64,000 bases of DNA from Smithella sp. (GCA_049517435.1 JBEKRZ010000003.1:82865-146864); one strand, 5' to 3'. Counted from the stretch's first letter, positions 18 through 63,696 are shown. A program made the numbers and translations. The notes: a model not told the origin generated them from the letters alone.

Positions 18-98
18 CTAGTGAGTCCCAAGTTTCAGAAGCGAAGCGCGCTGAAATTTGTTGGACGAACTATCCCCTGAGTGAAGCGAATGGGGATT
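18..98 (-). repeat. Family C two-hairpin mini-element
   Basis: Reverse complement reads ATCCCC..GGGGAT-AGTTCGTCCAAC-hairpin-GGGACTCACTA; first hairpin nearly identical to 63615-63642. Confidence 0.75.
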
Positions 99-165
99 AG
101 GGAATGCAATTGAAAGCTAGAGGGATAAAATTCTAAAACCGTTATTTTATTTTCAGGAGATTTAT

Positions 166-567
166 ATGCCGGAAAGAAAAATTCGTGTGATGGTTGCCAA
201 ACCTGGGCTGGATGGCCATGACCGAGGCGCCCGTATTCTCGCTCGTTGTTTCCGCGATGCCGGATTTGAAGTTGTTTATACGGGCTGTCATCAAACGCCG
301 GAGCAAATCGCGGCGGCCGCTATTCAGGAAGATGTTGATTTAGTAGGTTTGAGCTGTCTTTCCGGCGCTCACCGTGTGCTTTTCCCGAGGGTTGTGGAAC
401 TTTTGCGCGAAAAAGACGCTCAGGATATTACCGTCATCGGCGGCGGAATAATTCCCGAACAGGATTTTCCTGCGCTTTACTCCTCGGGCATTAAGGCTAT
501 TTTCACTCCCGGCGCATCCCTCGATTCCATTGTGGAATGGATTAAAACAAATATAAAACCACACTAA
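166..567 (+). CDS. Cobalamin-binding subunit of methylmalonyl/isobutyryl-CoA mutase
   Basis: [11 protein letters not shown]12-binding motif, SxLSGAH, GGGIIP; RBS AGGAG. Confidence 0.93.
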
Positions 568-594
568 AAGATCTTTTTAAACGGCAAAAAAGCT

Positions 595-1569
595 ATGGAA
601 TCTACTATAAAAAAAATCTGCGCGGGCGATGTCCGCTCGGCCTCTCGCCTCATCAGGGATATTGAAGATAAAATTCCCGAAGCCAAAGCTAAAATCAAAA
701 AACTTTACGCCTATACCGGCAAATCATTCATTATCGGGATAACCGGTGCACCGGGAGCGGGCAAGAGCACCTTGACTGACGCGCTGATCACCGAGTTGCG
801 AAAACAAAATAAAACTATCGGTGTGCTGGCCGTTGATCCGACCAGCCCTTTTACCGGCGGCGCGATTCTGGGTGATAGAATCCGCATGCAGCGCCATGCC
901 GAAGATCCCGGAGTTTTTGTCCGGTCGCTGGCCACACGCGGCGCATTGGGAGGCCTGTCCCAGGCCGTGGGCGATGCCATTCACGTCATGGAAGCAATGG
1001 GCAAAGATATAATTATTGTCGAAACCGTCGGCATCGGCCAGCAGGAAATTGACATCATCAATCACGCGCATAGCGTCGCAGTTGTTCTTGTTCCCGGAAT
1101 GGGCGATGAAATTCAAACTATGAAGGCCGGATTAATGGAAATAGCCGATATTTTCGTCATCAACAAAGCAAATCGCGCCGGCGCCAAACAACTACAAACG
1201 GAATTGACCTCGATGCTCAATTTATCGTCTAAAACCGCCGATGGCTGGAAGCCTCCAATTGTGATGATCGGCGATGCTTTCAAGCCGGATATTTTTATCG
1301 AAGATACCGCGAAGCTTACTAAAAAAATAGAAGAGCATCATGTTTACCTGCAACAAAGCGGCAAACTCACCGAAAGGATGCATCGCAAAGCGATGGCGGA
1401 AATAAAGGATGCGCTGAGTGCCTGCCTTCTGGAACCTGTTTTTGAATCGCTTACCACCAGCGGCGAGCTAAAGCGTTTCGCCGAAAAAATAAAATCCAGA
1501 AAAACCGATCCTTATTCCGTGGCGGAAGAAATTGCCCAAAGATTTTTCAAAAATAAGGAAGAAAAATGA
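595..1569 (+). CDS. meaB: MeaB/ArgK GTPase, mutase chaperone
   Basis: GITGAPGAGKST, AVDPTSPFTGGAILGDRIRM, ETVGIGQ, NKA motifs. Confidence 0.93.
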   Translation: MESTIKKICAGDVRSASRLIRDIEDKIPEAKAKIKKLYAYTGKSFIIGITGAPGAGKSTLTDALITELRKQNKTIGVLAVDPTSPFTGGAILGDRIRMQRHAEDPGVFVRSLATRGALGGLSQAVGDAIHVMEAMGKDIIIVETVGIGQQEIDIINHAHSVAVVLVPGMGDEIQTMKAGLMEIADIFVINKANRAGAKQLQTELTSMLNLSSKTADGWKPPIVMIGDAFKPDIFIEDTAKLTKKIEEHHVYLQQSGKLTERMHRKAMAEIKDALSACLLEPVFESLTTSGELKRFAEKIKSRKTDPYSVAEEIAQRFFKNKEEK

Positions 1570-2174
1570 AAATTGCAAAAAGCAAAAAAACACCTGTTTC
1601 CAAGACAATCACTAAAAAGAAATCTCCAGCCGTGAAAAAGCCTGTCATAAAAACAGCCAAAGGGTTGGTGATAGTAATTACAGGCAACGGCAAGGGAAAA
1701 ACAACCGCAGCTTTTGGCCAGGCTCTGCGCGCCATCGGTCAGGGCTACAAAGTTTTTGTTCTGCAATTTATGAAGGGAAGAAAATACGGCGAATTTATTG
1801 CTGCGGGAAAATATCTTCCCCGTTTAACCATACGCATGTCCGGTCTGGACAGCTTTGTCATGCGCGATAATCCCGCGGCCGTTGATATCGAATTGGCGCA
1901 AAAAGGATTGGCTGCGGCCCAAAAAGCAATCAACAGCGGGAAATATGACATGGTCATTCTCGACGAAATCAATGTGGCGCTGGATTTTAAACTCATTGAT
2001 TTACGCGAAGTAGTCAAGCTAATTAAAAACAAACCAGCAGGACTTGATCTCATCTTGACCGGCCGCTACGCGCCCAAGGAAATTATCAAACTTGCCGATA
2101 CCGTCAGCGAAGTTAAGGAAGTGAAACATCATTACAACGCGGGCATAAAGGACCGTGCGGGCATTGAGTATTAA
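1566..2174 (+). CDS. cobO: Cob(I)alamin adenosyltransferase CobO/BtuR
   Basis: TGNGKGKTTAAFG, QFMKG, LDEIN, LTGR, GIEY C-terminus. Confidence 0.92.
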   Translation: MKIAKSKKTPVSKTITKKKSPAVKKPVIKTAKGLVIVITGNGKGKTTAAFGQALRAIGQGYKVFVLQFMKGRKYGEFIAAGKYLPRLTIRMSGLDSFVMRDNPAAVDIELAQKGLAAAQKAINSGKYDMVILDEINVALDFKLIDLREVVKLIKNKPAGLDLILTGRYAPKEIIKLADTVSEVKEVKHHYNAGIKDRAGIEY

Positions 2175-2230
2175 TACCCGTTAGATTTGGTATTTTACGA
2201 ATTGATTAAAAAACTAAGGAGAATATAAAA

Positions 2231-2750: not shown

Positions 2751-2889
2751 GTGAAACTCCAATTCTAATGAAACCCAGATATTACAAGCACAGCGAAGTA
2801 ATATCTGTAAGTTGAATTATCCCACGTGCGAAGCTAAGTGGGACTGCATATGATACCCTACAGCTTGCTGTGGGCTCATACCCGTGATT
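2751..2889 (-). repeat. Composite repeat: family C element plus family D palindrome
   Basis: 2751-2844 is a near-identical reverse complement of 12551-12644; 2852-2874 GATACCCTACAGCTTGCTGTGGG matches 52015-52037; 2876-2889 matches 12482-12495 inverted. Confidence 0.85.
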
Positions 2890-6336: not shown

Positions 6337-7800
6337 ATGTGTAAAATTGAAAACAACCTCCAGAAAATATTTGGCCGCTTTTTATCCATAATATTAATTT
6401 TATTATTCCTTGTTCCGGCTACCGGCCTTGCCAATACGTCCGCGACAAATTTACCGGCCAGCGATATTGGCGCTCTTCTTCCATTCTGGTCTATGTTGCC
6501 ATTTGCCGGTATTTTATTTTCCATAGCATTAATTCCGTTATTTGCGCCCCATTTTTGGAGTCATCATTTCAAAAAAGTTTCGGCATTTTGGGGTTTGATT
6601 TTTGCAGTGCCGTTTTTGTATTTTTTCCGGGAAGTCGCCGTTCGTGAGATAGCGCGTATTATCATCATCGATTACATTCCCTTCATTTTGCTGCTATGGT
6701 CCTTATTTACCGTTTCCGGCGGTATTCATGTCAAAGGGACATTGAAAGGATCGCCCGGTGTTAATACGTTTATACTGTTGATCGGCACCATCCTGGCATC
6801 ATTCATCGGCACTACAGGCGCATCCATGTTAATGATCAGACCAATATTGCGCTCCAATGCTTGGCGTCAATATAAGGTTCATACGGTAGTATTTTTTATT
6901 TTTCTAGTCAGCAATATTGGCGGAGTTCTGACACCGCTGGGCGATCCGCCATTATTTCTTGGTTTTTTGCATGGCGTTCCCTTCTCCTGGACATTAAAAC
7001 TACTACCACAGATGATCTTTGCCTGTGTTATACTTCTGGGCATGTATTTTATTTTAGATACATTCTATTACAAAAAAGAAAATAAACCCACCATGCAAAG
7101 CCTGGAAGTAGAACCTTTGAAAATAAAAGGTGTCCACAATTTTGTATTTCTTACGGGAATAATCAGCGGAGTTTTATTCAGTGGCATGGTTAAACTTGGC
7201 GAAGTAAATATTTTCGGCATTCATCAATCCTTTGAAAACTTGATCAGAGATGCCATCTTGATCATTATGGGACTCTTATCGCTGGTTTCAACAAAAAAAG
7301 AAATCAGGCAAGATAATGAGTTTACCTGGGCCCCCATATTAGAAGTAACGTATCTCTTTGCGGGTATCTTTATGACCATTATCCCGGCACTAGCGATTCT
7401 GAAAGCAGGCGAAAAAGGAGCATTAGCATTATTTATAAAATCAATAAACACTCCGGCGCAATATTTCTGGGCTTCAGGTGTAATTTCAAGTTTCCTGGAT
7501 AATGCTCCCACATACTTGACCTTTTTAAATAGCGAGATCGGCAAGTTTTATCCGGGAATGCCGGAAACTCAGGCGGTTGCCCGGCTGATTGTAGAAAGAA
7601 TTAATTATCTTATGGCAGTATCAGCCGGAGCAGTCTTTATGGGAGCAAATACCTATATCGGCAATGCGCCCAATTTTATGGTCAAGTCTATCGCCGAAGA
7701 AGCCGGTGTGAAGATGCCGAGTTTCTTTGGATACATGTTTAAATACTCCATACCCATTTTAGTGGTTTTATTCATTATAATGACTTTTATATTCTTTTAA
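6337..7800 (+). CDS. Ion-transporter superfamily protein (putative Na+/H+ antiporter or citrate transporter)
   Basis: Many TM helices; SNIGGVLTPLGDPP, SSFLDNAPTY, TYIGNAPNFMV motifs. Confidence 0.8.
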   Translation: MCKIENNLQKIFGRFLSIILILLFLVPATGLANTSATNLPASDIGALLPFWSMLPFAGILFSIALIPLFAPHFWSHHFKKVSAFWGLIFAVPFLYFFREVAVREIARIIIIDYIPFILLLWSLFTVSGGIHVKGTLKGSPGVNTFILLIGTILASFIGTTGASMLMIRPILRSNAWRQYKVHTVVFFIFLVSNIGGVLTPLGDPPLFLGFLHGVPFSWTLKLLPQMIFACVILLGMYFILDTFYYKKENKPTMQSLEVEPLKIKGVHNFVFLTGIISGVLFSGMVKLGEVNIFGIHQSFENLIRDAILIIMGLLSLVSTKKEIRQDNEFTWAPILEVTYLFAGIFMTIIPALAILKAGEKGALALFIKSINTPAQYFWASGVISSFLDNAPTYLTFLNSEIGKFYPGMPETQAVARLIVERINYLMAVSAGAVFMGANTYIGNAPNFMVKSIAEEAGVKMPSFFGYMFKYSIPILVVLFIIMTFIFF

Positions 7801-7933: not shown

Positions 7934-8785
7934 ATGGCCGCAACACTGCGTAAATCTTTGAAAACAATAGAGGATTACAAATCAGCCAATCCTCATTACA
8001 CTGAACTTTTAGATATAATGGCTGACATTTTAATTTTGCGGGAAGAATACCGCAATAGCATGAAAAATCCCATTTTTAGTGTGGAAGAAAATTTAATCAC
8101 TCAAAAAATGGAGGGGGGACTTCCCTTAATTGATTTTACGGGAAAGGAGTATGATTTAACGCGTCCCAAAGAATATTTTAATTCACTAATTTCCATTGCT
8201 GAAAAAAGAATGCCCGAAGTGGCGCAAAACATTATCGACATAATTAAAAATCATGAATTTGATTGGGAAAAAATGATTCGAGCTTCTTTCGACTGCAAAG
8301 TTGAAGAAACTGGTGCTCAAGAGTTACTGACAGGCCGAGAATCTGAAGAAAATATTGATTTAATTGATCTTTTCACCGAAGAAAGTTTAAGGCCGGAACT
8401 GGAAAGTATTGCTGAAAAATACGGGGAAATAGTAGAAAAATCGAACTGGTCGGAAGGATACTGTCCCATTTGCGGCAAAGAACCTAAAATTGGTGAAATC
8501 AGGGACGAGGAAGAAGGAAGGCGTTATTTGTTTTGTCATCAGTGCGGCTTTAAATGGCATTTCCACCGGATCAAATGTCCATTTTGCGGCAACGAAGAAC
8601 AGCATTCTCTCGCTTATTTTGAAGTGGAAGGTGAAGAGCGTTACCGGGTGGATGTCTGTAACAAGTGCCGGCGCTATATAAAAACCGTTGAATTTTCTAA
8701 GTCAAGCGAAGAACCAAACCTTGACGTTGAAGATATTGCTACTTTGCACCTAGATATGATTGCTTACGACGAAGGTTACAATTAA
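7934..8785 (+). CDS. fdhE: Formate dehydrogenase accessory protein FdhE
   Basis: CPICG, RYLFCHQC, CPFCGN, DVCNKCRRYIK, DIATLHLD. Confidence 0.88.
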   Translation: MAATLRKSLKTIEDYKSANPHYTELLDIMADILILREEYRNSMKNPIFSVEENLITQKMEGGLPLIDFTGKEYDLTRPKEYFNSLISIAEKRMPEVAQNIIDIIKNHEFDWEKMIRASFDCKVEETGAQELLTGRESEENIDLIDLFTEESLRPELESIAEKYGEIVEKSNWSEGYCPICGKEPKIGEIRDEEEGRRYLFCHQCGFKWHFHRIKCPFCGNEEQHSLAYFEVEGEERYRVDVCNKCRRYIKTVEFSKSSEEPNLDVEDIATLHLDMIAYDEGYN

Positions 8786-8900
8786 TCTTAAACCTACGCA
8801 GGCTATAACTTTGTTTAAGCATTTTAAGTTTCCCCTGATAACTTAAAAGCACAAAAACAATTGAAATATCTTTAATATAAATATTGTAATTGGCAGTTAA

Positions 8901-9081
8901 GTGGGGCACCCTCCGTAAGGAGCCTGAGGCTCCTTGCAATAATGAGACCCAATCTTCAGAAATAAAGTGCACTGAAGCTTGCAGGTCGAATTATCCCGCG
9001 AAGCAGAGGATAACGTAACCTCCCGCGGGTTAAGGCGCATTCTTCCTCAGGCTAGAGCAGGGGGATTCCAAGCCGCGGGAT
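8901..9081 (-). repeat. Family C element (8940-9010) flanked by two further hairpins
   Basis: 8967-9010 is the inverted match of 12499-12542; flanking stems AAGGAGCC/GGCTCCTT and TCCCGCGG/CCGCGGGA. Confidence 0.7.
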
Positions 9082-9180
9082 TAAAATATTCTTAATTACA
9101 CTACCGCCCGTCTTTTAGTATTAGCTCGCTCGTAATTAAACATCATCCTTAAAAAGATAAGAAAATTCAGCCTCCTGCCC

Positions 9181-12481: not shown

Positions 12482-12644
12482 AATCACAGGTATGAAACCC
12501 TCCGCTTAGCGGGATAATTCGACCTGCAAGCTTCAGTGCACTATGTTATAGTCCCACTTAGCTTCGCACGTGGGATAATTCAACTTACAGATATTACGGT
12601 GCTGCCCTTGTAATATCTGAGTTTCATTAGAATTGGAGTTTCAC
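12482..12644 (+). repeat. Composite repeat with two family C modules
   Basis: Matches 2751-2889 and 8967-9010 in inverted orientation; two GGGATAATTC cores. Confidence 0.85.
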
Positions 12645-12666
12645 GAATAAAAAAGTTAGAGGAAAT

Positions 12667-41682: not shown

Positions 41683-41724
41683 CACGCGCAGGGCGATACG
41701 ATGTTAATCCGCGTGGATAAAAAA
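41683..41724 (+). repeat. Duplicate of thiolase 3' tail (40026-40067)
   Basis: CACGCGCAGGGCGATACGATGTTAATCCGCGTGGATAA vs CATGCGCAGGGCGATGCGATGTTAATCCGCGTAGATTA. Confidence 0.8.
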
Positions 41725-41909
41725 TAAAGGATTATTGGGCAACGAGCCTTCAATGCGCTTATGAACTCGCTTGTTTCCTTTTAGTTTAACATTTTCTTTA
41801 CAGCATCCGCAGCGGCTTAGCTCTTTTTTCATAGCGGCCGACACTTGCAGGGTGGTGATCAAACCATAACTAGGTATGATGCTGTAAAAAAATTAAATGG
41901 CTGGAATCT

Positions 41910-42806
41910 TCACCGCCGCTGATCGCGCCGCTGATACGACGACATAAGTTCCGCGCAAAACAAAAAAATCAAGGCGACATAAAATGCCCAGATAACCAGG
42001 ATAACAATTGTTCCCAAAGAACCAAAAATTATATTATAACGGGTATAGTTGGTTATATACCAGGTGAATAATTGTTTGGCGATTTCCATAAGCAGTGCAA
42101 AGAGCGCGCTGCCGGCCAAGGCAACAGTAGAACGAATTTTGTCTGCGGGGATAATCCGATAAACGAAATAAAAGAAAATTACCGTGATTAAATAAGGAAC
42201 AGCATACTGCAGCAGCGCTCCCGACATGACGCCAAGAGAAATATCAAGCCCTTCGGCTATTTCCACGGATTGCTTCACCAGCAAAGCTGCCGCATAGCTG
42301 ATTACCAAACTGACGCTGCCTATAATCCATCCGGCCGGAATCATCGAGAACGCTAACAGTTTGGAAATAAAATAATTCCGTTTTTTCCGGGAACGAAAAA
42401 TAATATTCAGCGCCGTTTCCATGGAATTAAAAATCATGGACGAAAGACCTACCAGTCCCAGCACACCCGCCCAGCCCAGCAAATGTTTTTTTCTTCCAAT
42501 TTGCCCCAACTGGGCCAGAAGCCTTTCGGAGAAGTAAGGGTTAAATCCCCTGATGGCGTCTATTATATTTTCTGAAACATTAGGATATGAACTGAAGAAA
42601 TATCCCGCGACAATAATCGTCAGAATAAAAAGAGGAATCGTCGAAAGGATTGAATAGAAGGCCATTGCCGCCGCTTGATTGGCATCGCCATTGCTTTTGT
42701 AATTTCTTACCGCGTCGGCTAAAGTAGCCCAAACGCCGGCGACTTTCATTCTAAACGATTTGGAATTCCGAGCGTGTAATGATTTATTAGCCTTCTCTCT
42801 AACCAT
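41910..42806 (-). CDS. YihY/virulence factor BrkB family membrane protein
   Basis: AAAMAFYSILS..P, YNIIFGSLG, LFCAEL. Confidence 0.85.
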   Translation of the reverse strand: MVREKANKSLHARNSKSFRMKVAGVWATLADAVRNYKSNGDANQAAAMAFYSILSTIPLFILTIIVAGYFFSSYPNVSENIIDAIRGFNPYFSERLLAQLGQIGRKKHLLGWAGVLGLVGLSSMIFNSMETALNIIFRSRKKRNYFISKLLAFSMIPAGWIIGSVSLVISYAAALLVKQSVEIAEGLDISLGVMSGALLQYAVPYLITVIFFYFVYRIIPADKIRSTVALAGSALFALLMEIAKQLFTWYITNYTRYNIIFGSLGTIVILVIWAFYVALIFLFCAELMSSYQRRDQRR

Positions 42807-43063
42807 AAAAATAGTCCGATAATTTTTAATGAGACTTAATTTTTATAATCCCGCAGTATTGCGGGAGCAGCAAAAATTTTTAGTCCCGATGCGGCATCGG
42901 GATACCAAAGCGTATAGGGATAAAATCAACTTGGCATAAGATTAAATTCCAAATAGGGTCTTGGGTCTTGTCCAAGGGTAAAACACTTTTATAATATTAC
43001 CAAACACCGTACAATTTGTAAAATTTTATTGCAATGGTTTGATTACTGCGCTAATTTACTTTT

Positions 43064-44698
43064 ATGCGCGCATTTCGTTATTTATTTTTTTTATCTCTGA
43101 TCATCATATCTTTAACTGCCTGCGATAAAAAGCCCGCGGCAGATAAGGCACAACCTTTATCAGCCAAACAACCTGCTTATGGCGATATACTCGTCAGGGG
43201 CGAAATCGGCGATGCCAGCAACCTGATACCGCTTCTAGCTTCCGATTCGGCTTCCCACGAAATTGCCGGCATGGTTTACAACGGCCTCGTGAAATACGAC
43301 AAGGATATGAACATTGTCGGCAATTTAGCGGAATCATGGGATATAACTGCAAAAGGTTTGGTCATTACTTTTCATTTGCGCAAAGGCGTGAAATGGCACG
43401 ACGGCCAGCCGTTTACCGCCGCCGATGTTCTCTATACTTATCAGGTTACCGTTGACCCGAAAACGCCCACAGCTTACGCGGAAGACTTTAGAGCGGTAAA
43501 AAAAGCGGAGGTGCTTGACGATTACACTTTCCGGGTGACTTACGATAAACCTTTTGCCCCTGCCCTGATCAGTTGGAGCAGTTCCATCCTGCCCCGGCAT
43601 TTGCTTTCGGGTACGGATATTACCCAAAGCCTGCTTAAACGCCATCCCATCGGCACAGGACCTTACAAATTCAAGGAATGGGTGGCCGGACAAAAGATCG
43701 TTCTTGTTTCCAATCCCGATTACTTTGAAGGACGTCCCTATATTGATGGACAGATCACGCGAATTATTCCCGACACCGCCACCATGTTTTTGGAATTGCG
43801 CGCCCAGAACCTCGGTATGATGGGCCTGACACCCCTGCAATACACACGGCAGACGGAAAACAACTTGTTTAAAAATAATTTTAATAAATACCGATATCTC
43901 AGTTTTGCGTACACCTACCTTGGTTACAATCTGAAAAATCCGCTTTTCACCGACAAGAGAGTGCGGCAGGCAATTTCGTATGCCATTAACAAAGATGAAA
44001 TTATCAGCGGCGTACTGCTGGGACTGGGCAAACCGGCAACCGGCCCTTACAAGCCGGGCAGCTGGGCTTACAATGATAAAGTTCAAAACTACAATTACAA
44101 TCCGCAAAAGGCCCGCGAACTTCTACGCGAAGCAGGCTGGACAAAATTAAATAGCGATGGCGTTCTGGAAAAATACGGCAAGCCCTTTGTTTTTGAAATA
44201 GTCACCAATCAGGGCAATGAGACGCGGCAGAAATGCGCGGAAATCATTCAGCGGCAGCTCAAGGATATCGGCATCACGGTAAAAATACGAATTCTGGAAT
44301 GGTCGGCATTTGTGACAAACTTTATCAACAAACGCCGTTTTGACGCGGTGATTCTCGGCTGGACTATTCCGCTTGATCCTGATGCTTATGATGTCTGGCA
44401 CTCCAGCAAAACAAAGCCGGAAGAACTGAACTTTATTTCCTACAATAATCCGGAAGCGGACGAAATGCTGGTAAAAGGACGCAGCACCTTCGACCAGAAC
44501 CAAAGAAAAAAATATTACGACCGCTTTCAGGAAATCCTCGCGGAAGACCAACCCTATACTTTTCTCTACGTACCCGAAGCCCTGATAATCACCCACAACC
44601 GTTTCCGGGGCATCCAACCCGCGCCCATCGGTCTGGAATACAATTTCATCAAGTGGTACGTTCCCAAAGATGAACAAAAATACACCATGACCAGATAA
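43064..44698 (+). CDS. Peptide/nickel ABC transporter substrate-binding lipoprotein (OppA/AppA-like)
   Basis: Lipobox LTAC; LAESW, LRKGVKWHDG, PIGTGPYK, VRQAI. Confidence 0.92.
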   Translation: MRAFRYLFFLSLIIISLTACDKKPAADKAQPLSAKQPAYGDILVRGEIGDASNLIPLLASDSASHEIAGMVYNGLVKYDKDMNIVGNLAESWDITAKGLVITFHLRKGVKWHDGQPFTAADVLYTYQVTVDPKTPTAYAEDFRAVKKAEVLDDYTFRVTYDKPFAPALISWSSSILPRHLLSGTDITQSLLKRHPIGTGPYKFKEWVAGQKIVLVSNPDYFEGRPYIDGQITRIIPDTATMFLELRAQNLGMMGLTPLQYTRQTENNLFKNNFNKYRYLSFAYTYLGYNLKNPLFTDKRVRQAISYAINKDEIISGVLLGLGKPATGPYKPGSWAYNDKVQNYNYNPQKARELLREAGWTKLNSDGVLEKYGKPFVFEIVTNQGNETRQKCAEIIQRQLKDIGITVKIRILEWSAFVTNFINKRRFDAVILGWTIPLDPDAYDVWHSSKTKPEELNFISYNNPEADEMLVKGRSTFDQNQRKKYYDRFQEILAEDQPYTFLYVPEALIITHNRFRGIQPAPIGLEYNFIKWYVPKDEQKYTMTR

Positions 44699-44951
44699 GA
44701 GCTTTCAACTATTTCCGTAACATAAAAATGACATGATATGTAGAAACTTAAAAAACGTTGCAAATGAAATGTCAATGATTTATAAATCTACATCCTTAAT
44801 TTATTTAGCATACTCACATTAGTTAATAGATTATTCATTGGATAGACAGGGCATAAATTGTTTTGCGTAGAACCACGGCAGTTTTTATGAATTGTAGATC
44901 TATTAAGAAACGCTAGAATAACTTGTTTGGCATAGGCTGATAATAAAAACA

Positions 44952-45362
44952 ATGTTAACAAACTCATATCTTATAGCATTAGGGATACCATTAATACTGC
45001 TCCTGTGTGGAGCATTAGCCAAAAAAATAGTACGTGGTGGAGGTTGGAAATACTCGGATTTCTTTCTTGGTGTTGAGCTGACTTTGGCTGCGCTCGGTTC
45101 AGCTATGGTATTCTTCTATGATTTACAAAAGCTTGGTAATAGCGCAACGGCAAGTAGTATCTCTTTAGCCGATAAGATGGCTGCAACGGCATCTTTTCTA
45201 ATAATTGCATTTTTCTTACTACTTTGGGTGCTTTCAACACACCAAGATTGGGAGGGGCAAACACAAAATCCTAGAAGGCAAATTATGTGGTTAGGTTTAA
45301 TCTGCAATGCCATAGGTATCGCGCTTTTCGCAGCATTTGTAATGCTAGTAAAGGGTATTTAA
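44952..45362 (+). CDS. Hypothetical 4-TM membrane protein
   Basis: 136 aa, four hydrophobic segments, AT-rich, stop 1 nt before the TIR gene. Confidence 0.7.
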   Translation: MLTNSYLIALGIPLILLLCGALAKKIVRGGGWKYSDFFLGVELTLAALGSAMVFFYDLQKLGNSATASSISLADKMAATASFLIIAFFLLLWVLSTHQDWEGQTQNPRRQIMWLGLICNAIGIALFAAFVMLVKGI

Positions 45363-45363
45363 T

Positions 45364-45981
45364 ATGATGGATGACAAATTGAAGATCTTAATTAAAGACT
45401 TACTTAATATTGTTACTGTTGTTATTGCTGTTGGAGCACTTTCCTGGTCAATGTTCTCCGTAGAAAAATTTTCGGATAGACCTCATCTTTTGATAATTAT
45501 TTCTATAGCAGCCTCTGCCTACGCAGCAATTTTTTCTGTTTACTTGTCGCGTAAACGTGAGCGACGATTACGCCTGCGCCGCATTTTCATAATTTATAGT
45601 AATAAAGACCGGGAAACAGCGACCAAGATTGTGAAGCATTTACGCGATCTGGGTTACAATCCTTGGTTTGATGTAGATGAAATCTCTCCAGGTCAGAAGT
45701 GGGCTCAATCAGTAATGAAAGGAATATCAGAGAGTGCTGTGGCTCTGTTGCTAGTCTCCAAAAATCTCAATTTAGAAAAGAACTTTGCTTCAAAAGAGCT
45801 TGAGACAGCAATGTCTGTTATGAGATCGCGAAACGAATTGTTTAGTCCCATAATTCCAGTGCGGCTGGATGATTCGGAAGTCCCTAGAGATTTAAGTGAC
45901 GTCAACTGGGTTGATCTCCAAAGCAAAGATGGATTTGAACAACTTGAAAGAGGACTGAAAAGTGTTCTCGGCCAAGCTTAA
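45364..45981 (+). CDS. Membrane-anchored TIR-domain protein
   Basis: Two N-terminal TMs; IFIIYSNKD, PWFD..EISPG, KELE, IIPVRLD TIR_2-type boxes. Confidence 0.85.
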   Translation: MMDDKLKILIKDLLNIVTVVIAVGALSWSMFSVEKFSDRPHLLIIISIAASAYAAIFSVYLSRKRERRLRLRRIFIIYSNKDRETATKIVKHLRDLGYNPWFDVDEISPGQKWAQSVMKGISESAVALLLVSKNLNLEKNFASKELETAMSVMRSRNELFSPIIPVRLDDSEVPRDLSDVNWVDLQSKDGFEQLERGLKSVLGQA

Positions 45982-46033
45982 TCGGCGCATCCAGACGGAC
46001 GCGAACTAGCGCCGCTGATATCCGGCGTTGAGG
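45976..46033 (+). other. Degenerate attC site
   Basis: GCTTAAT (overlaps stop)-N5-CATCCAG...GCTGATA-N6-GTTGAGG. Confidence 0.6.
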
Positions 46034-46107
46034 CAGTCACAAAAGCAAATAAAGGGGTCAGGTCTGCCTTTGACTTTTGAAAAATAATGGCCGCCGGAGG
46101 AAAAATT

Positions 46108-46241
46108 ATACCATCTCTAAATCAAAGATGATATTGAGGCGGCTAGGCGTATTATACATACGTTGAGGAAACCGACAACGACCCAGGCATGCGCTGGGCT
46201 GCGCTGCCAACAAAAATAGCGTTTTGATTTAGAGATGGTAT
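46108..46241. mobile_element. Family A MITE
   Basis: TIRs ATACCATCTCTAAATCAAA / TTTGATTTAGAGATGGTAT with a compensatory change; ~23-bp hairpin insert. Confidence 0.85.
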
Positions 46242-46247
46242 TAACAT

Positions 46248-46901
46248 ATGAAAAATGGATTCTCCATAGCCTTAGTATGGTGCGGTGGTATTGGGATCAT
46301 CCTTCTTACCATCGTAATTATTCTATCATGGGAAAAGTGGCGAAAGCGTGCAATCATCGAGGCGGGGAAATCGTTGGGATTCCACCACTTGGCAGAAGGA
46401 GAAATATTGCCGGTCGTCTTGGTTCCGCTGATCAACCCTACCCAAAATAAATATTTTGTAATTCTGCGGGGAGAGATTAACGGATATGAGGCGGGATTTT
46501 TCGATCTTTTCATCGGGGCGGGGAAAAACTGGTTTTATCAATCCACGGTGATCGTGAAGAACCCGCAGGTAATGATGCCGAAGTTCCAATTGAAATCGTC
46601 CGACTGGTCGCACACGATCAGCCAGCGCACCTGCGGAGACGCATTGAAGATTCCGGGGCGTGAGAAAGATCTGGGCTCGCTTAGGTTATCCGCGGAAGAT
46701 CCTCAATGGGCACTGCAAACATTTTCCGGAGCTAATCCTCAATTTTTCCAGAAGCTGCAAAAAGGAAAATGGACCATCGAAGGCTTTCAGCATTCACTGG
46801 TAATCTATCGCTGGGGTCAAACAATTTCACCACGGAAACTTCAGGAATATGTAAATCAGGCGGCAGAGGTCGCGACGGAAATGTATTCGCTCTGTTCCTG
46901 A
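46248..46901 (+). CDS. Hypothetical protein with N-terminal TM anchor
   Basis: 217-aa ORF tightly bracketed by two family A elements. Confidence 0.65.
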   Translation: MKNGFSIALVWCGGIGIILLTIVIILSWEKWRKRAIIEAGKSLGFHHLAEGEILPVVLVPLINPTQNKYFVILRGEINGYEAGFFDLFIGAGKNWFYQSTVIVKNPQVMMPKFQLKSSDWSHTISQRTCGDALKIPGREKDLGSLRLSAEDPQWALQTFSGANPQFFQKLQKGKWTIEGFQHSLVIYRWGQTISPRKLQEYVNQAAEVATEMYSLCS

Positions 46902-46908
46902 TACCTTT

Positions 46909-47295
46909 ATACCATCTCGCTTGTAAGTTACCACCTTTCAGGCGGTAATTACCGGTAAGGTAAATTTTTAATTTGCTATGCGCTCCCATGTGGGATGCGC
47001 TCCCGGTCTTCGGCTAACTTTGTTAGCTGTGTCGTCGGTTTCCTCAACGTATAACCTGAAGGTCACACGTTAGTAGCGTTAGTAATACGCCTGCGGAGCC
47101 TCTTCCTTGCCCCACTGAAGTGGGACAGTTCAACTAACGAATTACAGTTTACTGCGTAACTGTAATTCGAGTTTCACTGCCGCCGCGTTATCCTTTGACC
47201 GGGTGCGCAACCAGTGGGCGCGCAATAAAAATAGAACTTTTTACCCTACCGGGAAGTGACGCCGAACAGGCAGCAGCTTCAAATCGAAATGGTAT
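46909..47295. mobile_element. Expanded family A MITE with symmetric arm insertions and a nested family C element
   Basis: Same ends and body as 34716-34838; extra ~84-bp blocks at ~46924-47007 and ~47199-47281 are inverted homologs; C element 47110-47178. Confidence 0.8.
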
Positions 47296-47299
47296 AATA

Positions 47300-47342
47300 A
47301 TTACCCACAATCGTTTCCGGGGCATTGAATCCGCTTCCATCG
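47300..47342 (+). repeat. Partial copy of the oppA-like 3' tail
   Basis: ATTACCCACAATCGTTTCCGGGGCATTGAATCCGCTTCCATCG matches 44588-44630 and 56797-56839. Confidence 0.75.
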
Positions 47343-47349
47343 AATAGCA

Positions 47350-47545
47350 AAGAGGTCGGGTCTGCCTCTGACTGCTGAGTACCGGGCTGCTGCCGCCCAG
47401 GAGCCGCAGCACCTTGACGTCGCGCATGATCTTCTCCACATAATAGTCGTGAATATAGCCGTAGCCGCCATGAATCTCCATGGCATCGAGTGCGATCTTC
47501 AGGGCGGCGTCGGTGCAGAAGACCTTGGCTGCACGGCCGTCGAGA
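47350..47545 (-). pseudogene. C-terminal fragment of an acyl-CoA dehydrogenase
   Basis: AAKVFCTDAALKIALDAMEIHGGYGYIHDYYVEKIMRDVK signature with no N-terminal part. Confidence 0.75.
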
Positions 47546-47784
47546 CGGGGTATCGGCTGTCCATCATCCTCGCGCGCAAACGCCCTCCTATAAACATAAG
47601 GACCAAGACTTCCTTGACATACAAGACCTGACTTCCTGCAGTTCAAGAACGAATAAACGATGTCTTATCAGAGATTTATTATAAAGAGGCCGCCTGAACG
47701 TTTTTTCTTGACAAATATTAGTTTTTAATATTAGTCATCAGACATGACGCGTCGGTTCCATAAAATACACAAAGGGGTGATATT

Positions 47785-48171
47785 ATGAAACTTTGGTCAA
47801 GAGGTTTGGGGAAACAAGAGATTCTCATGGATTTCAGGTATTGCAAAACCTTGAAGGATTCTGAAACGGGGAACATGCTCATCATAGGAAACATGCAAAG
47901 CCCGGTCACATGGGAGTTTAAAATTACATTTCATCCGGAAGATATCGGCGGCATCATGAAGGCTATTTTTTGCCCTTCCATGCTTTTTTTTGCCATTAAA
48001 AATTTACCCCAGTATTTGATCTATCTTATGAACAGGAATAAATTTAAACATGAAGGAAATCTCGTAGAAAAAGTTAACGCCGCGTATGAACAGTGCATGA
48101 CCGGCGGCAGGGTATATCACCGTGAGCCAGGGTCACTTTCTTCAAGCGCGGCTTTAGTGAAGGAGGTGTAA
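47785..48171 (+). CDS. Hypothetical protein, first gene of the flavoprotein operon
   Basis: 128 aa with RBS AAGGGG; stop 2 nt before the next start. Confidence 0.7.
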   Translation: MKLWSRGLGKQEILMDFRYCKTLKDSETGNMLIIGNMQSPVTWEFKITFHPEDIGGIMKAIFCPSMLFFAIKNLPQYLIYLMNRNKFKHEGNLVEKVNAAYEQCMTGGRVYHREPGSLSSSAALVKEV

Positions 48172-48173
48172 AC

Positions 48174-49889
48174 ATGCCCGATTATGATGTTATCGTTATA
48201 GGAGGCGGCATCAACGGCCTGTGTTGTTCCGCCTACCTGGGAAAGGCAGGCCTGAAGACCCTCGTCCTTGAAGCCAGAGGCGAATGCGGGGCCCATTGCG
48301 ACACCAGCGAACCGGGCATTCCGGGATTCCTTTATAATCTTCACGCGACAATGCTTGCCACCGGTTTCGGACCGCCTATGCAGGATCTGGAACTGGAAAA
48401 ATATGGACTTGAACTGAGGAACACATCCTATGTCTGGGGCAAGCCGTTTCTCGATGGCACCAATGCCCTCATCGCCTCCAACCCCTATGACACCATGGAA
48501 AACTGGGGAAAGTATTCTAAACAGGACCGTGCCCTTTTAGAAAATGCGCTGGATTTTCTGTACCCGCAGATGCTGGAGTTTACCGATATTGTACATCGGT
48601 TCATGTACACGGCCCCCACAGCCCAGACCATGCAGGATTTTTCCGATTTTATGGGACGCTTCTTCAAGCATCTGGGCAAAAATATGACCGGCGAGCAATT
48701 CATGAAAATGAACGGCTTTGAGGTCATGGATGCCATGTTTGAATCGGACCACATCAAGACTATGGTGCAGGCCATGGAATGGATCATTGGGTTTCCGCCC
48801 ATACATCCACAGATCGGCGCGATCGGTTCCCTGCTGGGGCTGCTTTCAGGATCCTTCTTCCCGCTCACCACGGCTAAGGGGGGCTCCCATGCTGTGACTC
48901 ATGCCCTCATCCAGGCGAACGTGGACAACGGTGTCAAGATCATGACCTGCTGCCCGGTGAAGAAGATCATCATGAAAAACGGGGAAGCGCAGGGGGTGAT
49001 ACTCCACGAAGACTCCATTTATCCCAACCAGGAAATCACGGCAGAGAAGATCGTCAGCAATATAACCGTTGTGCCAACATTCATCAACCTTATCGGTGAA
49101 GATCATATTTCCGACAAGAATCTGGTTAAAAGAATAAAGAACTTCAATTACCATGAGCAGACAATATTCACGGTACACTATGCCCTGAGCGGTCCGCCAC
49201 AATGGAGAACGGCCGATTATGATGAAGGCATCATGCGTTCATGGATGGGATATTTCGGCGGCGAAACCACCGACGAGATGAAAAAGTACTCACAGGCGAT
49301 CATCGACCAGGAGATCTACCCGGAAATATACGCGAACTGGTACCTTCCCACCCTTGCCGATCCTACTCAGGCCCCGAAAGGGTGCCATGTAACCCAGGCG
49401 TGGATTGACATACCGGGGGAACCCCTGAAATGGAAGCATGGGCAGCTCGGAGGCAAGAATTCGTTTCTGGATATTAAAAACGTCCTGGCCGACCAGATTA
49501 CCGATGCCTATGAACGCTACGCACCTGGTTTCAAAAAGCAGATTCTGAACCGCTACATCTATTCACCCCTTGAGCAGGAACGGAACAATCCCTCGGCGAT
49601 TCAGGGATGCTGGGCGGGCGGCAGCGTTATCCCGGAACAGTTCTACGACAAGCGACCTGTTGCCGGCGTGTGCGTCGGCGGCGGGTCTAGAACCTTCATG
49701 AAGAACCTTTACCTGTCCAATTCAATTCATCCCTTCGGAATTACGCCGCTGGGTTCAGGATACATCGCCGCCTGCGAGGTTGCCGAAGACATGGGTGTAC
49801 GCGAGCAGGGGTGGTGGACCAGCAAGGCGACCCACTGGTATCTTGAGAACGCCGCCAATATTCCACTCGATCTCGGTGTAGGGAGGTAA
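48174..49889 (+). CDS. Phytoene dehydrogenase-like FAD oxidoreductase (COG1233-like)
   Basis: YDVIVIGGGINGL Rossmann motif, LEARGECGAHCDT, KGGSHA, YSPLE, NLYL. Confidence 0.8.
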   Translation: MPDYDVIVIGGGINGLCCSAYLGKAGLKTLVLEARGECGAHCDTSEPGIPGFLYNLHATMLATGFGPPMQDLELEKYGLELRNTSYVWGKPFLDGTNALIASNPYDTMENWGKYSKQDRALLENALDFLYPQMLEFTDIVHRFMYTAPTAQTMQDFSDFMGRFFKHLGKNMTGEQFMKMNGFEVMDAMFESDHIKTMVQAMEWIIGFPPIHPQIGAIGSLLGLLSGSFFPLTTAKGGSHAVTHALIQANVDNGVKIMTCCPVKKIIMKNGEAQGVILHEDSIYPNQEITAEKIVSNITVVPTFINLIGEDHISDKNLVKRIKNFNYHEQTIFTVHYALSGPPQWRTADYDEGIMRSWMGYFGGETTDEMKKYSQAIIDQEIYPEIYANWYLPTLADPTQAPKGCHVTQAWIDIPGEPLKWKHGQLGGKNSFLDIKNVLADQITDAYERYAPGFKKQILNRYIYSPLEQERNNPSAIQGCWAGGSVIPEQFYDKRPVAGVCVGGGSRTFMKNLYLSNSIHPFGITPLGSGYIAACEVAEDMGVREQGWWTSKATHWYLENAANIPLDLGVGR

Positions 49890-49891
49890 TT

Positions 49892-51454
49892 ATGAAAAGC
49901 AAGGAATATGATGTAATAATAATAGGAGCCGGCCCCAACGGCCTCATCTGCGGCGCCTATCTGGCGCGGGCCGGACTCAAAGTGGCACTTATGGAGCGGA
50001 GGCATGAAACTGGGGGCGGCCTTGACACACTGGAGCTCGCCGGGTTTAAATACAATCCGCACGCCATCTATCACATGATGGGGGAATACATGCCTCCCTA
50101 CCGCGACTTCAACCTCGGTGAACGCGGGGTGAAGTATATTTATCCTGATGTCCAGGCCGCGTACATCGGGAAGAACCACAAGCCGGTTGTGTTATATCTC
50201 GACCCGAAAAAAACAGCGCAGTATCTTTCAGCGCACTTCAACAAAGAAGACGGCAAGCGGTATGAGCAAATGTATAGCGAGTTCAAGGAACTTTCCGAGA
50301 AAATCGTTATGCCCCTGACATATATGCCGGCTATGCCGGCGATGGAGCAGGTCCCGTCTTTCGCGATTGAGTACGGCGAGTTGGGCGAGAGATTCAATGA
50401 AATATCGGAAATGACACCGCTGGAAATACTGGAAGAACGTTACGGCTTTTCAGATCCGATGAAGGCGGCCCTGTACAATCTCTTTGCCATGTGGGGCCAT
50501 TCAAACTATGACGGACTGGGGTTTCTCTTTCCGCTCATTGTGTACCGCATGCTCAACGCAGCGCTGGTAAGCGGCGGCTCCCACCGGCTTTCATCGGCAT
50601 TGCACAAAGTGGTACTGGAGGCGGGAGGTGATATATGCGATTTGTCCGAGGTCACGAAAGTCCTCCTTACGGGGGGCAAGGTATCGGGTGTACGCCTCGC
50701 CGACGGAACCGAAGTTAAGTCGAAGATTGTTGCGTCCACCGTTGACACGAAGCAGAATTTCCTCGAGTTTTTTGAAGAGAGTCAGCTTCCTGCCGACCTC
50801 GTGCAGAGCGCCCGGCGGTGGGAGTGGGAAAAGGTGTCCTATTTCGGCATGCATCTTTCCCTCCGGTCGGCGCCCCGATATATCGGCACCGAAGGCATTG
50901 ACGACGCGAACAGAGCACTGATGACCCACCTGGGGGTCAGCGATACCGAAGAAGTACTGAAAAATTTCCATGATATGGAAGAGGGAAAGCTTCCCGGCCA
51001 TCCCCACGGCCATACCACGATAGCGTCCCTCTTTGACCCGATACAGGGATACGGAACATGCCATACCGCCCGGTGGGAATCTCTGGCTCCCTTTGACCAG
51101 GACTGGGACTTGATCAAAGACGATTACGCGAAGCAATGTATGGATGTATGGAAACAGTACGCCCCGAACCTTGATCCGCTGGATCCGATGAACACGCTCA
51201 TCTATCCCCCCACCTATATAGAAAAGAAATTCAAAAACATGGTGCGGGGCTCCATTAAGCAAGGATCGTACATGACCCTCCAGATGGGATATAACCGGCC
51301 CAATGACGCATGTTCCCGCGGCTATACTCCAATCGAAGGGTTTTATGTGTGCGGGGCCAGCACATATCCCGGAGGTATGATCATCGGCGGCCCCGGGTAT
51401 CTTGGCGCAAATATTATCGTCGAGGATCTAGGGGTGAAGAAGAACTGGAAGTAA
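49892..51454 (+). CDS. Second phytoene dehydrogenase-like FAD oxidoreductase
   Basis: IIGAGPNGL, ERRHETGGG, TPIEGFYVCGASTYPGG. Confidence 0.82.
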   Translation: MKSKEYDVIIIGAGPNGLICGAYLARAGLKVALMERRHETGGGLDTLELAGFKYNPHAIYHMMGEYMPPYRDFNLGERGVKYIYPDVQAAYIGKNHKPVVLYLDPKKTAQYLSAHFNKEDGKRYEQMYSEFKELSEKIVMPLTYMPAMPAMEQVPSFAIEYGELGERFNEISEMTPLEILEERYGFSDPMKAALYNLFAMWGHSNYDGLGFLFPLIVYRMLNAALVSGGSHRLSSALHKVVLEAGGDICDLSEVTKVLLTGGKVSGVRLADGTEVKSKIVASTVDTKQNFLEFFEESQLPADLVQSARRWEWEKVSYFGMHLSLRSAPRYIGTEGIDDANRALMTHLGVSDTEEVLKNFHDMEEGKLPGHPHGHTTIASLFDPIQGYGTCHTARWESLAPFDQDWDLIKDDYAKQCMDVWKQYAPNLDPLDPMNTLIYPPTYIEKKFKNMVRGSIKQGSYMTLQMGYNRPNDACSRGYTPIEGFYVCGASTYPGGMIIGGPGYLGANIIVEDLGVKKNWK

Positions 51455-61156: not shown

Positions 61157-61618
61157 TTATTTTTTACCCTTGCTCAGCAAATCTTTTAATTCGGACATGA
61201 ATTCTCCGACATCGCGAAATTGACGGTAAACCGAAGCAAACCGGACATAGGCAACGCCGTCGAACATTTTCAGTTCGTTCATTATCTTTTCTCCGATAAG
61301 TGTCGAAGAAATTTCTTCGGCTTGAACTTCCTGGCAGGCCTGCTCCACATTTTCAACGAGCTTATCTATCGCCTCCATGCTGATCGGACGCTTCTCACAA
61401 GCCTTTTTTATGCCTGTCATAATTTTTTGCCGGTCAAACTGTTCGCGGCGGCCGTCTTTTTTTACGACCATCGGCAATATATCTTCGACATATTCATAAG
61501 TGGTAAAGCGCTTCGTGCAACCCAAACATTCCCGGCGGCGGCGGACGGCTTTGCCGTCTTTGCTTATTCGCGAATCAATAACTTTATTTTCCGCATGACC
61601 GCAAAACGGGCACTTCAT
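61157..61618 (-). CDS. nrdR: Transcriptional repressor NrdR
   Basis: MKCPFC, RRRREC..C..RFTTYE, ATP cone, AYVRFASVY. Confidence 0.96.
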
Positions 61619-61651
61619 GATTTTGATTACCTTATTAATTTTTTCTATATT

Positions 61652-62137
61652 TTAGAGTTGTTTTACGCTGATTCCTGCTTCCTTGAGCATCTGTGCGGCT
61701 AACTTGTCGTGATAACCGTCACGAATAACGATACGGACAATTCCTGCATTGATAATCATTTTAGCGCAGATAACACAGGGATGATTGGTGCAATAAAGTG
61801 TTGATCCTTTGGTAATAACACCATGCATGGCGGCCTGAATAATCACATTTTGTTCCGCGTGCAGTCCACGGCATAATTCATGACGTTCACCCGAAGGAAC
61901 TTTGAGTTGTTCGCGCATACAGCCAATATCCAGACAGTGCTGAAGCTTGGAGGGGGCGCCATTATAACCAGTGGCCAGAATCCGGCGATCGCGCACCAAT
62001 CCGGATCCCACAGAGCGCCTGAGGCAAGTACTGCGCCTGGATACCAGTTCGACAATGTCCAGAAAATAAGTATCCCAATCGGGCCTCTTATTAATTTTCT
62101 CCGGCAGATTCGCTGAAGATACTTTTTTTGGGGCCAT
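61652..62137 (-). CDS. dCMP deaminase (ComEB-like)
   Basis: [27 protein letters not shown]. Confidence 0.9.
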
Positions 62138-62161
62138 AGCTACACGCTTTCACGAATTTGT

Positions 62162-63436
62162 TTACAGGCTTTTAATCCTTCGTTGATAAAGAGGAAACTG
62201 AGCACAAAGAGTTTTTATCTTTTCCGCAATAGCCTGAATATTTTTCTCATTATTTATATTTTCAATTACATCGGCGATATAGGAAGCGATTAAACGCATC
62301 TCGCCTTCCTTCATGCCTCTCGTAGTCACAGCGGGAGTACCAATTCTAATTCCGCTGGTTACCTGTGGTCCCTTGGTATCAAAAGGAATACCGTTTTTAT
62401 TGACAGTTATGGCAGCGCGGTCGAGCGCTTCCTGAGCGTCTTTTCCTGTAACGCCTTTGGCAGTTAAATCAACCAGCATCAAATGATTGTCGGTTCCTCC
62501 CGAAACAATCCGGAATCCCTGATTCTTTAGTTCATCCGCCATTGCCTGAGCGTTTCTAATTATCTGTTTCTGATATTCCTTGAATTCCGGCTGAAGCGCT
62601 TCCTGAAAAGCAACAGCCTTTGCGGCGATAACGTGCATTAATGGCCCGCCCTGCATGCCGGGGAAAACTCTGCTGTTCAATGTTTTGGCGTAAGCTTCTT
62701 TGCACATGACCAAACCACCGCGTGGTCCGCGCAAAGTTTTATGCGTTGTAGTCGTGACGTATTCACAAATGGGAACGGGGGAAGGATGCAATCCCGTGCA
62801 GACAAGCCCGGCGATATGGGCGATATCCGCCATAATTATAGCGCCGACTTCATCGGCAATATTTCGGAACCGTTGAAAATCAAGCACCCTAGGATAAGCG
62901 CTGGCGCCGACAATAATCATTTTAGGTTTATGTTCCTTGGCTAATTTTTCCACTTCATCAAAATCAATAGTTTCCGTATCTTTGCTGACTCCGTAAGGAA
63001 CAATCTTATATAGTTTACCCGAAAAATTGGCCGGGCTTCCATGAGACAAATGTCCACCATGAGACAGATTCATTCCCAAAACCGTATCACCCGGCTGCAC
63101 AGCAGCGAAGTACACGGCCATATTCGCTTGCGTGCCCGAATGTGGTTGTACATTGACATGATCTGCTCCAAAAAGCTGTTTACAGCGCTCAATCGCCAGA
63201 CTTTCCACAATGTCGACAAATTCGCAGCCGCCATAGTAACGTTTCCCCGGATATCCCTCAGCGTACTTATTGGTCATAACAGAGCCCTGTGCTTCCAATA
63301 CCGCTTCACTGACAAAATTCTCTGAAGCGATCAGCTCGATTTTTCCCGCTTGACGGCGTGTTTCCAGATCAATGGCCTGACTGACTTTCGGATCAACTTT
63401 TTCTAAAAAAGACATGGAATTTGTTCTCTCCTTCAT
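62162..63436 (-). CDS. glyA: Serine hydroxymethyltransferase
   Basis: [28 protein letters not shown]. Confidence 0.97.
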
Positions 63437-63467
63437 TCTTAATTTCTATATATCTCGGGTCTTAAAC

Positions 63468-63696
63468 CCCCCGCCTTTGGTGGAATAATTTCCAATAGCC
63501 TTTGGCTATTGGATAATTCGGCTAATAAACTTCAATGCGCATTGCTTTTGAAGTTTATGCCTCATTACAACTAACACTATAAATTAACTCCGTTCGTTTT
63601 CAATTGTATTTCACAATCCCCATTCGCTTCGCTCAGGGGATAATTCGACTGACGCTTCAGACTTCATCCCGACTCGTCGGGATTCGTTTTCAGCGA
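63468..63696 (+). repeat. Cluster of three family C elements, one nested
   Basis: Outer 63468-63614, inner 63491-63567, adjacent 63615-63696 carrying the mini-palindrome ATCCCGACTCGTCGGGAT. Confidence 0.8.

Follow-up and report, generated by a model that had tools for sequence, protein, structure and literature searches.

Two-hairpin repeats of Smithella that insert into their own cores: fold, distribution and possible mode of movement

A stretch of 64,000 nucleotides from Smithella sp. (GCA_049517435.1 JBEKRZ010000003.1:82865-146864), referred to here as the window, carries repeats of about 80 bp, some of which sit inside others of their own kind. What sort of DNA are these repeats, and how do they come to lie within one another? 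An earlier note, made from the sequence alone, had listed twelve intervals as a single family of two-hairpin elements, here family C, and had proposed that these are non-autonomous, insert at their own core without target duplication and are driven in trans by an HUH enzyme. All twelve intervals show a first hairpin (hairpin 1), a core, a second hairpin (hairpin 2) and a conserved terminal sequence (END), and do form one family, although two of the listed ends were a few bases off. Each unit has a direction: its two hairpins differ from one another, its core of 17 nt is conserved and its END is 11 nt long. Family C is probably the core two-hairpin module of a lineage-wide, small, gene-less and directional mobile DNA of Smithella-type bacteria (Smithellaceae), whose moving form would be folded single-stranded DNA (ssDNA) cut by a trans-acting strand transferase. 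The results described below are best read as those of a REP/PATE-like mobile DNA that is non-autonomous and site-specific.

Nested insertion and the conserved fold

The window holds a filled and an empty version of the same site. The element at 37266-37413 equals its uninterrupted paralogue at 47110-47179 plus exactly 37285-37364 (80 bp), with flanks that are 88% identical over 33 nt and 91% identical over 67 nt. The letters at the junction permit no shift of the boundary, and there is no target duplication. The empty site reads GGGACAGTT|CAACTAAC and lies at 47130|47131, confirming the one reported earlier in this paralogue. The same arrangement recurs across the genome to which the window belongs (G000; 3.10 Mb, 61 contigs, 43% G+C; the window is G000:C3:82865-146864), where 29 of 35 fully parsed TCCAAT-type elements, the type of both inner copies in the window, stand at ARTT|CRNC without duplication and the remaining six follow near variants of the core. 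Nested junctions are fixed rather than random genome-wide. The 29 nested copies occupy 25 different host hairpin-2 arms and have 29 different left contexts, and of the 70 pairs of inner elements that are at least 90% alike, 64 have host flanks less than 60% alike. Because alike inner elements have unlike host flanks, neither duplication nor long-tract conversion can explain the nesting, and the claim of insertion at the family's own core holds for unrelated hosts as well as for the filled and empty pair.

Other sub-families use other sites. Copies of a second one (TACCAC type, TACCACGGCGC…) are found in the hairpin-2 3′ arm of GCTTCAAAC-type hosts at CGTTT|TCAGCGAG (GTTT|TCAG), a position held by 10 of 24 loosely typed copies, or about 14 by eye. 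TCCCAC-type copies are preceded by NTAG in 18 of 42 cases and followed by (G)AATTGGAGTTTCA in 18 of 42. Elements of all types that start directly behind another END number 28, and 77 of 918 loose END matches in G000 are immediately followed by the right-hand octamer of the core, a few of them by chance; other copies lie in AT-rich intergenic DNA. Self-targeting is precise, leaves no duplication and takes place at sub-family-specific sites of other copies.

Elements follow a constant order: hairpin 1, TART, TC, GACT, AA, a 10-bp hairpin-2 stem, AGTC, TC and AYTA. Beyond the two hairpins we found two long-range helices. Core TART pairs with the terminal AYTA (variants TAAT/ATTA, TAGT/ACTA, CAGT/ACTG and TTGT/ACAA) and core GACT pairs with AGTC of the END (AACT/AGTT and other variants), while a C17-G48 pair lengthens hairpin 2. 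Across 76 sequences, drawn from the window as well as from other genomes, 95.5% of pairing cells were paired compared to 75.3% in shuffles, none of 500 of which scored as high. Changes on both sides were seen in 15 of 18 pairs, and sliding the partners by 1-3 columns brought pairing to 20-43%. A set of 261 unique 58-nt segments gave 96.6% Watson-Crick pairing for the two new helices (79% shuffled) and 91% for hairpin 2 (48% shuffled) across 81 different arms, and the 94 segments taken from other genomes and unselected for pairing gave the same result. Base pairing is kept far more than sequence, as the earlier note had claimed.

The insertion site in the core corresponds to the T|C step of a TC/TC internal loop between the two new helices. 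At the other end of the fold, the closing T..A of hairpin 1 adjoins TART in 168 of 198 parsed elements. Because hairpin 1 and the closing helix are adjacent, the first and last bases of an element abut on its own core, GGGA|TART, and minimum-energy DNA folds recover this architecture with the abutting ends included. Folded as ssDNA, the elements had z scores of -4.3 to -7.7, and 8 of 8 strands folded were more stable than 200 of 200 shuffles. The oligonucleotide d(GCGAAGC) is an unusually stable mini-hairpin, and GCGAAGC/GCTTCGC had been noted in several loops. Read from hairpin 1 to END, GCTTCGC is present in 58 of 198 hairpin-1 regions and 18 of 198 hairpin-2 regions, but GCGAAGC never occurs in this orientation among the 198 parsed elements and so always lies on the complementary strand.

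Occurrence in the window and in other genomes

The copies and composites in the window are as follows.

19-96, minus strand: complete simple element with a TCCCC hairpin 1, core GGGATAGTTCGTCCAAC, hairpin 2 and END GGGACTCACTA; TAGT/ACTA helix present
2751-2889, minus strand: composite element with left end AATCACGGGTATGAG and right end GGAGTTTCAC
2766-2843, minus strand: TCCCAC-type element inside the preceding composite (structural parse)
8940-9010, minus strand: simple element with a hairpin 2 of AAGCTTCAG type, followed by more hairpin modules to about 9110
12484-12651, plus strand: composite 3′ of dnaK, made up of the next two copies and a tail, GAATTGGAGTTTCAC
12499-12545, plus strand: truncated copy
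12552-12629, plus strand: complete TCCCAC-type element
30639-30712, minus strand: GGGATTGTT / CAACA-type element with TTGT/ACAA pairing, belonging to a longer composite that reaches about 30790
37266-37413, plus strand: outer GGACAGTT-type element in two halves, 37266-37284 and 37365-37413, interrupted by the next element and lying within a repeat of about 300 bp at 37153-37451
37285-37364, plus strand: inner TCCAAT-type element of 80 bp, inserted at GGGACAGTT|CAACTAAC; DNA fold z = -6.2
42827-42925, minus strand: degenerate thirteenth copy, missing from the earlier list
47110-47179, plus strand: uninterrupted paralogue of the outer element at 37266-37413, with the empty site
63468-63614, plus strand: degenerate outer element with halves 63468-63490 and 63568-63614
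63491-63567, plus strand: inner TCCAAT-type element of 77 bp, inserted at GGAATAATT|CAACTAAC; in its minimum-energy fold hairpin 1 abuts a helix closing on the last 4 nt
63617-63705, plus strand: simple element; its hairpin-2 loop holds a mini hairpin of 17 nt (63667-63683)

Parsed elements were taken to start at the T that pairs with the A of GGGA, which sets the bounds of 19-96, 2766-2843, 12552-12629 and 63617-63705. The last copy ends at 63705 and not 63696, its END GAGTCTCATTA being at 63695-63705. Several of these copies are parts of longer composites with a left end AATCACGGGTAT… and a right end …GGAGTTTCA(A)C. The composites 2751-2889, 30639 to about 30790 and 12484-12651 follow TTATT on the opposite strand, and the first, read on the plus strand, lies just 3′ of a terminator hairpin and TTTTATT. 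The GGACAGTT sub-family module is housed in the repeat of about 300 bp at 37153-37451, which has terminal inverted repeats (TTAATACCATTTCTAAATCAAAG…). Related repeats were seen in the window at 24552-24698, 46103-46244, 47013-47192 and 34736-34807; short versions of about 145 bp lack the GGACAGTT module, and the long form has about 25 copies genome-wide in the core listing. The 17-nt mini hairpin (TCCCGACTCGTCGGGAT) occupies the hairpin-2 loop of GCTTCAAAC-type elements, with many other copies in G000 and in the genomes G006 and G135, and is a third layer of nesting.

Family C is abundant in G000. The degenerate core GGAYARTTCRRCTWAC has 123 exact matches in its 3.1 Mb, and the reversed pattern, used as a control, has none across 36 genomes of the genus. 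Allowing up to 3 mismatches gave 145 matches compared to 34 in a shuffled genome. Structural parsing returned 3999 END-plus-hairpin candidates, 476 of which had an octamer like the right half of the core; directly upstream of these stood ATARTT (336), another END (44) or some other context (96). Most of the 96 resemble chance matches, leaving 380 hairpin-2/END modules whose upstream context can be recognised. With a covariance model made from the 76 sequences, at least 158 matches were obtained in G000, a floor, with 150 of 1756 candidates scored. Although open reading frame (ORF) proxies cover about 83% of the genome, 332 of the 380 modules are intergenic and 48 lie inside such proxies. Some copies are found directly 3′ of stop codons or terminators, and some contigs of G000 end in elements.

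Exact cores occur in 31 of the 36 genomes of the genus, with 0-97 in each genome other than G000; G002, G036, G037 and G038 are element-free. In public genomes the element pattern was found at no fewer than 125 loci, nearly all in metagenome-assembled genomes (MAGs) titled Smithella, Syntrophaceae or delta proteobacterium. Within a sample of 151 genomes of the order, the core-to-END pattern was present in 8, almost all of the window's own family: 6 of 10 there, 1 of 10 in one other family and none in the remaining families sampled. The same sub-families, with the same hairpin-2 arms, recur across several genera of the window's family. Two Bacteroidota MAGs each contain one bona fide copy, the hairpins being different. 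One of these (L188, on G046:C104, local G+C 32%) has a conserved core and END and a 17-bp hairpin 2, and is placed immediately after a glyoxalase-family gene's stop codon, with a gene for a protein that has a type IX secretion system (T9SS) sorting domain nearby; the presence of the family in another phylum is genuine. A bin labelled as an archaeon has 9 copies, on small contigs, and is probably misbinned. Viral contigs gave three matches, two of which (L184 and L185) are on a single 46-kb contig, between its tail and head genes, where the END overlaps the start codon of the next gene (CATTATG). The 21 ORFs scanned on this contig gave no nuclease or transposase domain. The interval 37150-37460 had no match among 72,556 plasmids.

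Sites that are filled in one genome are empty in another. The spacer downstream of dnaK had both anchors aligned in 6 of 11 congener loci, and all six lack the composite of about 170 nt. Spacers of G007 homologous to 2682-2907 and 1-164, and spacers of G006 homologous to 8784-9152 and about 30400-30790, are likewise without elements. The reverse case was also seen, with a core in G006 beside the orthologue of the gene at 6337-7800, where the window has none. Coding DNA identity among these congeners is only about 75-88%. Relative to G006, the window has about 1 kb of extra DNA at 29701-30372 and 30400-30790, which includes a 223-aa ORF and adjoins the element at 30639-30712.

Mobilisation and rival explanations

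In our preferred reading, an element would move as folded single-stranded DNA, and a trans-acting strand transferase would cut and rejoin it 3′ of its hairpins, by analogy with REP/RAYT and IS200/IS605 systems. In the single strand both ends, 5′ and 3′, would be brought next to each other on the GGGA|TART core of the element itself, and the cleavage site of any copy would become a target, which would explain the self-targeting. The enzyme may be an unrecognised one of HUH type.

A number of results weigh against this reading. Searches of G000 itself found no enzyme, and the elements could be linked to none of the known transposase families: a TnpB search gave 0 matches, and neither multi-copy transposase ORFs nor a gene-enclosing long copy beyond a few hundred bases was found in this genome. 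The last result leaves no copy enclosing an HUH/Y1 or recombinase ORF, as the earlier note had suggested might exist, while agreeing with its view that the elements are non-autonomous, since no copy encloses a gene. A full-length relative exists for 123 of 198 elements in G000, the nearest being mostly 90-97% identical with one identical pair; because the copies are only moderately alike, recent activity and very recent bursts are not apparent. Four peat or wetland DNA runs compared with 30001-50000 gave unitig-like contigs that end at repeats, with joints from paralogous copies, and because the contigs break there, filled and empty alleles could not be read from population data. Finally, left flanks showed no complementarity to any fixed register of the element beyond sub-family effects (best 35%), unlike the guide rule of IS608.

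Among the alternatives, a PATE/REP-type family mobilised by a Y1 HUH enzyme (IS200/IS605 TnpA or RAYT) encoded elsewhere in the genome or lineage survives best, although we consider it doubtful. REPs carry GTAG, which the NTAG before hairpin-1 arms of 18 of 42 TCCCAC-type copies resembles. RAYT-like genes are also common in the genus, with Y1 matches in 28 of 36 genomes. The absence of terminal inverted repeats, the near-end hairpins, the lack of duplication and insertion 3′ of short AT-rich words all fit such an enzyme. In addition, the terminal AYTA pairs and covaries with the tetranucleotide 5′ of hairpin 2, recalling the guide and cleavage rule of IS608 (PMC3201880).

The Y1 genes themselves argue otherwise. 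A Y1_Tnp search of G000 gave two matches, both to defective genes and neither flanked by the family. The first is a 74-aa IS200 TnpA stump with no family features around it; the second, a RAYT-like gene broken by one TAA at G000:C22 (L002 1330-1908, minus strand), is flanked by its own REPs of another type (GTAGT plus a CGAACCTTTAGGTTCG-type hairpin). A 22-nt insert in some family C hairpin-2 loops (CTATAGTGACCTTTAGGTTATT) resembles the REPs beside this gene. None of 29 Y1 loci from 27 congeners contained a core, one having a distant END, and blastn-short comparison of 199 elements with 31 Y1 loci gave a single true overlap, an incidental one in which a family composite is truncated beside a RAYT cassette with its own inverted repeats. 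Y1 presence did not track copy number. Five genomes (G029, G027, G045, G035 and G001) have 13-35 exact cores and no Y1 match, G006 has 65 of the narrower cores and a single IS200-type gene, and orthologues of the G000 RAYT (65-74% identity) are confined to G008, G012 and G013, which have 7-11 cores. Nor is there a lagging-strand or replichore pattern in core orientation on the 2.09-Mb contig G006:C7, on which origin and terminus are not mapped: its 64 cores (34 plus, 30 minus) fall into 32 runs compared to 32.9 expected. The HUH/Y1 driver proposed in the earlier note found no support in any of these tests.

A search for REPtron-like arrangements gave 27 ORF proxies with modules on both sides, none of which looks transposase-like; by their first residues we take them to be housekeeping genes (deformylase-like, sigma-factor-like, RadC-like). 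G000 also has protein families present in multiple copies, with 12, 6 and 7 members that share at least 60% identity (for example C10:49540-50145, C13:75296-75589 and C45:366-1130), and these multi-copy ORFs include some that, from their first residues, are presumably HU/IHF-like and response-regulator-like. An IS91 Y2 search of G000 gave 0 matches, but its control matched nowhere, which makes it uninformative, and a Resolvase search gave one match, a large serine recombinase.

A more radical possibility, which we regard as tentative and rather unlikely, is that family C is self-splinting single-stranded mobile DNA, in which the core would keep an element's first and last bases together and the hairpins of each sub-family would specify a structural target within other copies (a T|C step in a TC/TC internal loop). 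Cutting and joining would then fall either to host enzymes of replication and repair or to an enzyme that belongs to none of the known transposase families. If true, family C would represent a class of mobile DNA that is new, and not a decayed insertion sequence (IS).

Site-specific recombination on a folded or cruciform core by a resident recombinase, either a tyrosine recombinase (Xer-like or a small integrase) or an IS110-type DEDD enzyme, is improbable in our judgement. Candidates exist, as G000 has 12 Phage_integrase matches and 2 IS110-type genes; insertion is precise, oriented and duplication-free, and IS110 relatives are known to target repeats. However, the circle junction (…CATTA|TCC…) and the target (…AATT|CGA…) share no identical core, both IS110 matches lie on small contigs without elements, and no recombinase gene is tied to the family. 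Integron attC sites have the form GTTRRRY and dif sites an 11-6-11 layout; the core, judged by eye, fits neither, and both readings were rejected.

That family C is a structured RNA (a small RNA, ribozyme or terminator-like element) spread or kept for an RNA function is very unlikely. A conserved unpaired core with covarying helices, the intergenic position of most modules (332 of 380) and the copies directly after stop codons or terminators are what such a family could show. A constraint on one RNA strand would favour G.U pairs, however, and the 261 segments contain 37 G.T pairs compared to 46 A.C pairs. Orientation relative to co-directional neighbouring genes is 96 same and 92 opposite. That G.T is not commoner than A.C, and that orientation follows neither transcription nor replication, points to constraint at the level of DNA rather than RNA. 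Rfam gave 0 matches at gathering score on the window and 0 at E <= 1 on two element-rich stretches, so that the elements matched no described RNA family there; G000 had no reverse transcriptase (RVT_1) match, and the precise nested insertions are events in DNA. Spread of the nested forms without any transposition, by homologous recombination, gene conversion between dispersed repeats or segmental duplication, is likewise very unlikely: hosts do share core halves of 9 and 8 nt and copies are only 90-97% alike, but that 8-9 nt is all the homology there is on each side, and the 29 nested copies with their 25 host arms and 29 left contexts, like the 64 of 70 alike pairs in unlike flanks, speak against it.

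Bacterial intergenic DNA is full of small hairpin repeats, REPs, PATEs and SMRs among them, most of which move in ways that have yet to be explained. In family C there are hundreds of copies whose junctions are precise, the sub-families differ in their fixed targets and the fold brings both ends together, so that the cutting and joining sites lend themselves to direct tests with oligonucleotides. It also presents hyperparasitism at an 80-bp scale, with repeats living within repeats, and has a practical effect, since assemblies of Smithella genomes break at the elements and spurious ORFs arise from them.

Comparison with known systems

No published description of family C was found in the literature searched, in which the motif letters matched only unrelated primer or aptamer papers; the main text of a 2026 comparative paper on Smithellaceae (PMC13685792) does not contain hairpin, palindrom-, transpos- or intergenic. 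The family is apparently undescribed. A miniature inverted-repeat transposable element of a DDE transposon was considered and rejected, as T-CCC… at one end and …TCAYTA at the other do not form an inverted repeat, and no target duplication is seen.

The nearest described systems are the PATEs and SMR-A of the archaeon Haloquadratum walsbyi. PATEs carry no genes and no terminal inverted repeats, their palindromes lie close to the ends, and they insert without duplicating the target. SMR-A elements, about 110 bp long and likewise duplication-free, insert by preference into the palindromes found near the ends of PATEs and of IS605-type elements, by a mobilisation that was called enigmatic (PMC3119063). 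Family C is alike in being gene-less and in inserting without duplication. Measured against PATEs, it has no terminal inverted repeats, hairpin 1 lies at its 5′ end and hairpin 2 lies 11 nt before its 3′ end, and no duplication was seen in the filled and empty pair or at the 29 nested junctions. PATE ends match resident IS605-type transposons, whereas no such parent was found for family C; SMR-A elements have inverted terminal repeats, which family C lacks, and target the palindromes of another family, whereas in family C invader and target are one family, and the host is bacterial rather than archaeal.

REP, BIME and REPIN sequences with their RAYT (TnpA-REP; PMC6006769, PMC3116915) are also close, being short intergenic hairpin repeats of high copy number that form mosaic clusters, depend on a trans-acting enzyme and persist in lineages. 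Family C is likewise short, intergenic, hairpin-forming, high in copy number, clustered in mosaics and lineage-persistent. REPINs, however, are inverted doublets of one hairpin, whereas the family C unit has a direction and combines two different hairpins with a core and an END. RAYT genes are flanked by cognate repeats, and no RAYT flanked by family C members was found; the REP-like tetranucleotide, as NTAG, precedes only the 18 of 42 TCCCAC-type copies given above.

With IS200/IS605 elements such as IS608 and ISDra2 (PMC3201880, PMC3597680, PMC5027513), family C shares asymmetric hairpin ends, the lack of duplication, insertion 3′ of a short word and an end word that pairs with an internal tetranucleotide. 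At its 3′ end, AYTA pairs and covaries with TART; at its 5′ end, hairpin 1 starts at the very first base and so leaves no room for a guide. IS200/IS605 elements have a TnpA partner, and none was found for family C. Targeting of the lagging-strand template is reported for IS608 and ISDra2 (PMC6006769), whereas no strand bias was seen on the G006 contig. Family C thus resembles known small hairpin mobile repeats but has no parent IS, cognate RAYT, doublets or replication bias. Unlike IS200/IS605 elements, family C has a separate structural target within other copies for each sub-family. Its fold, in which the two ends of an element meet, is unusual among small hairpin mobile repeats.

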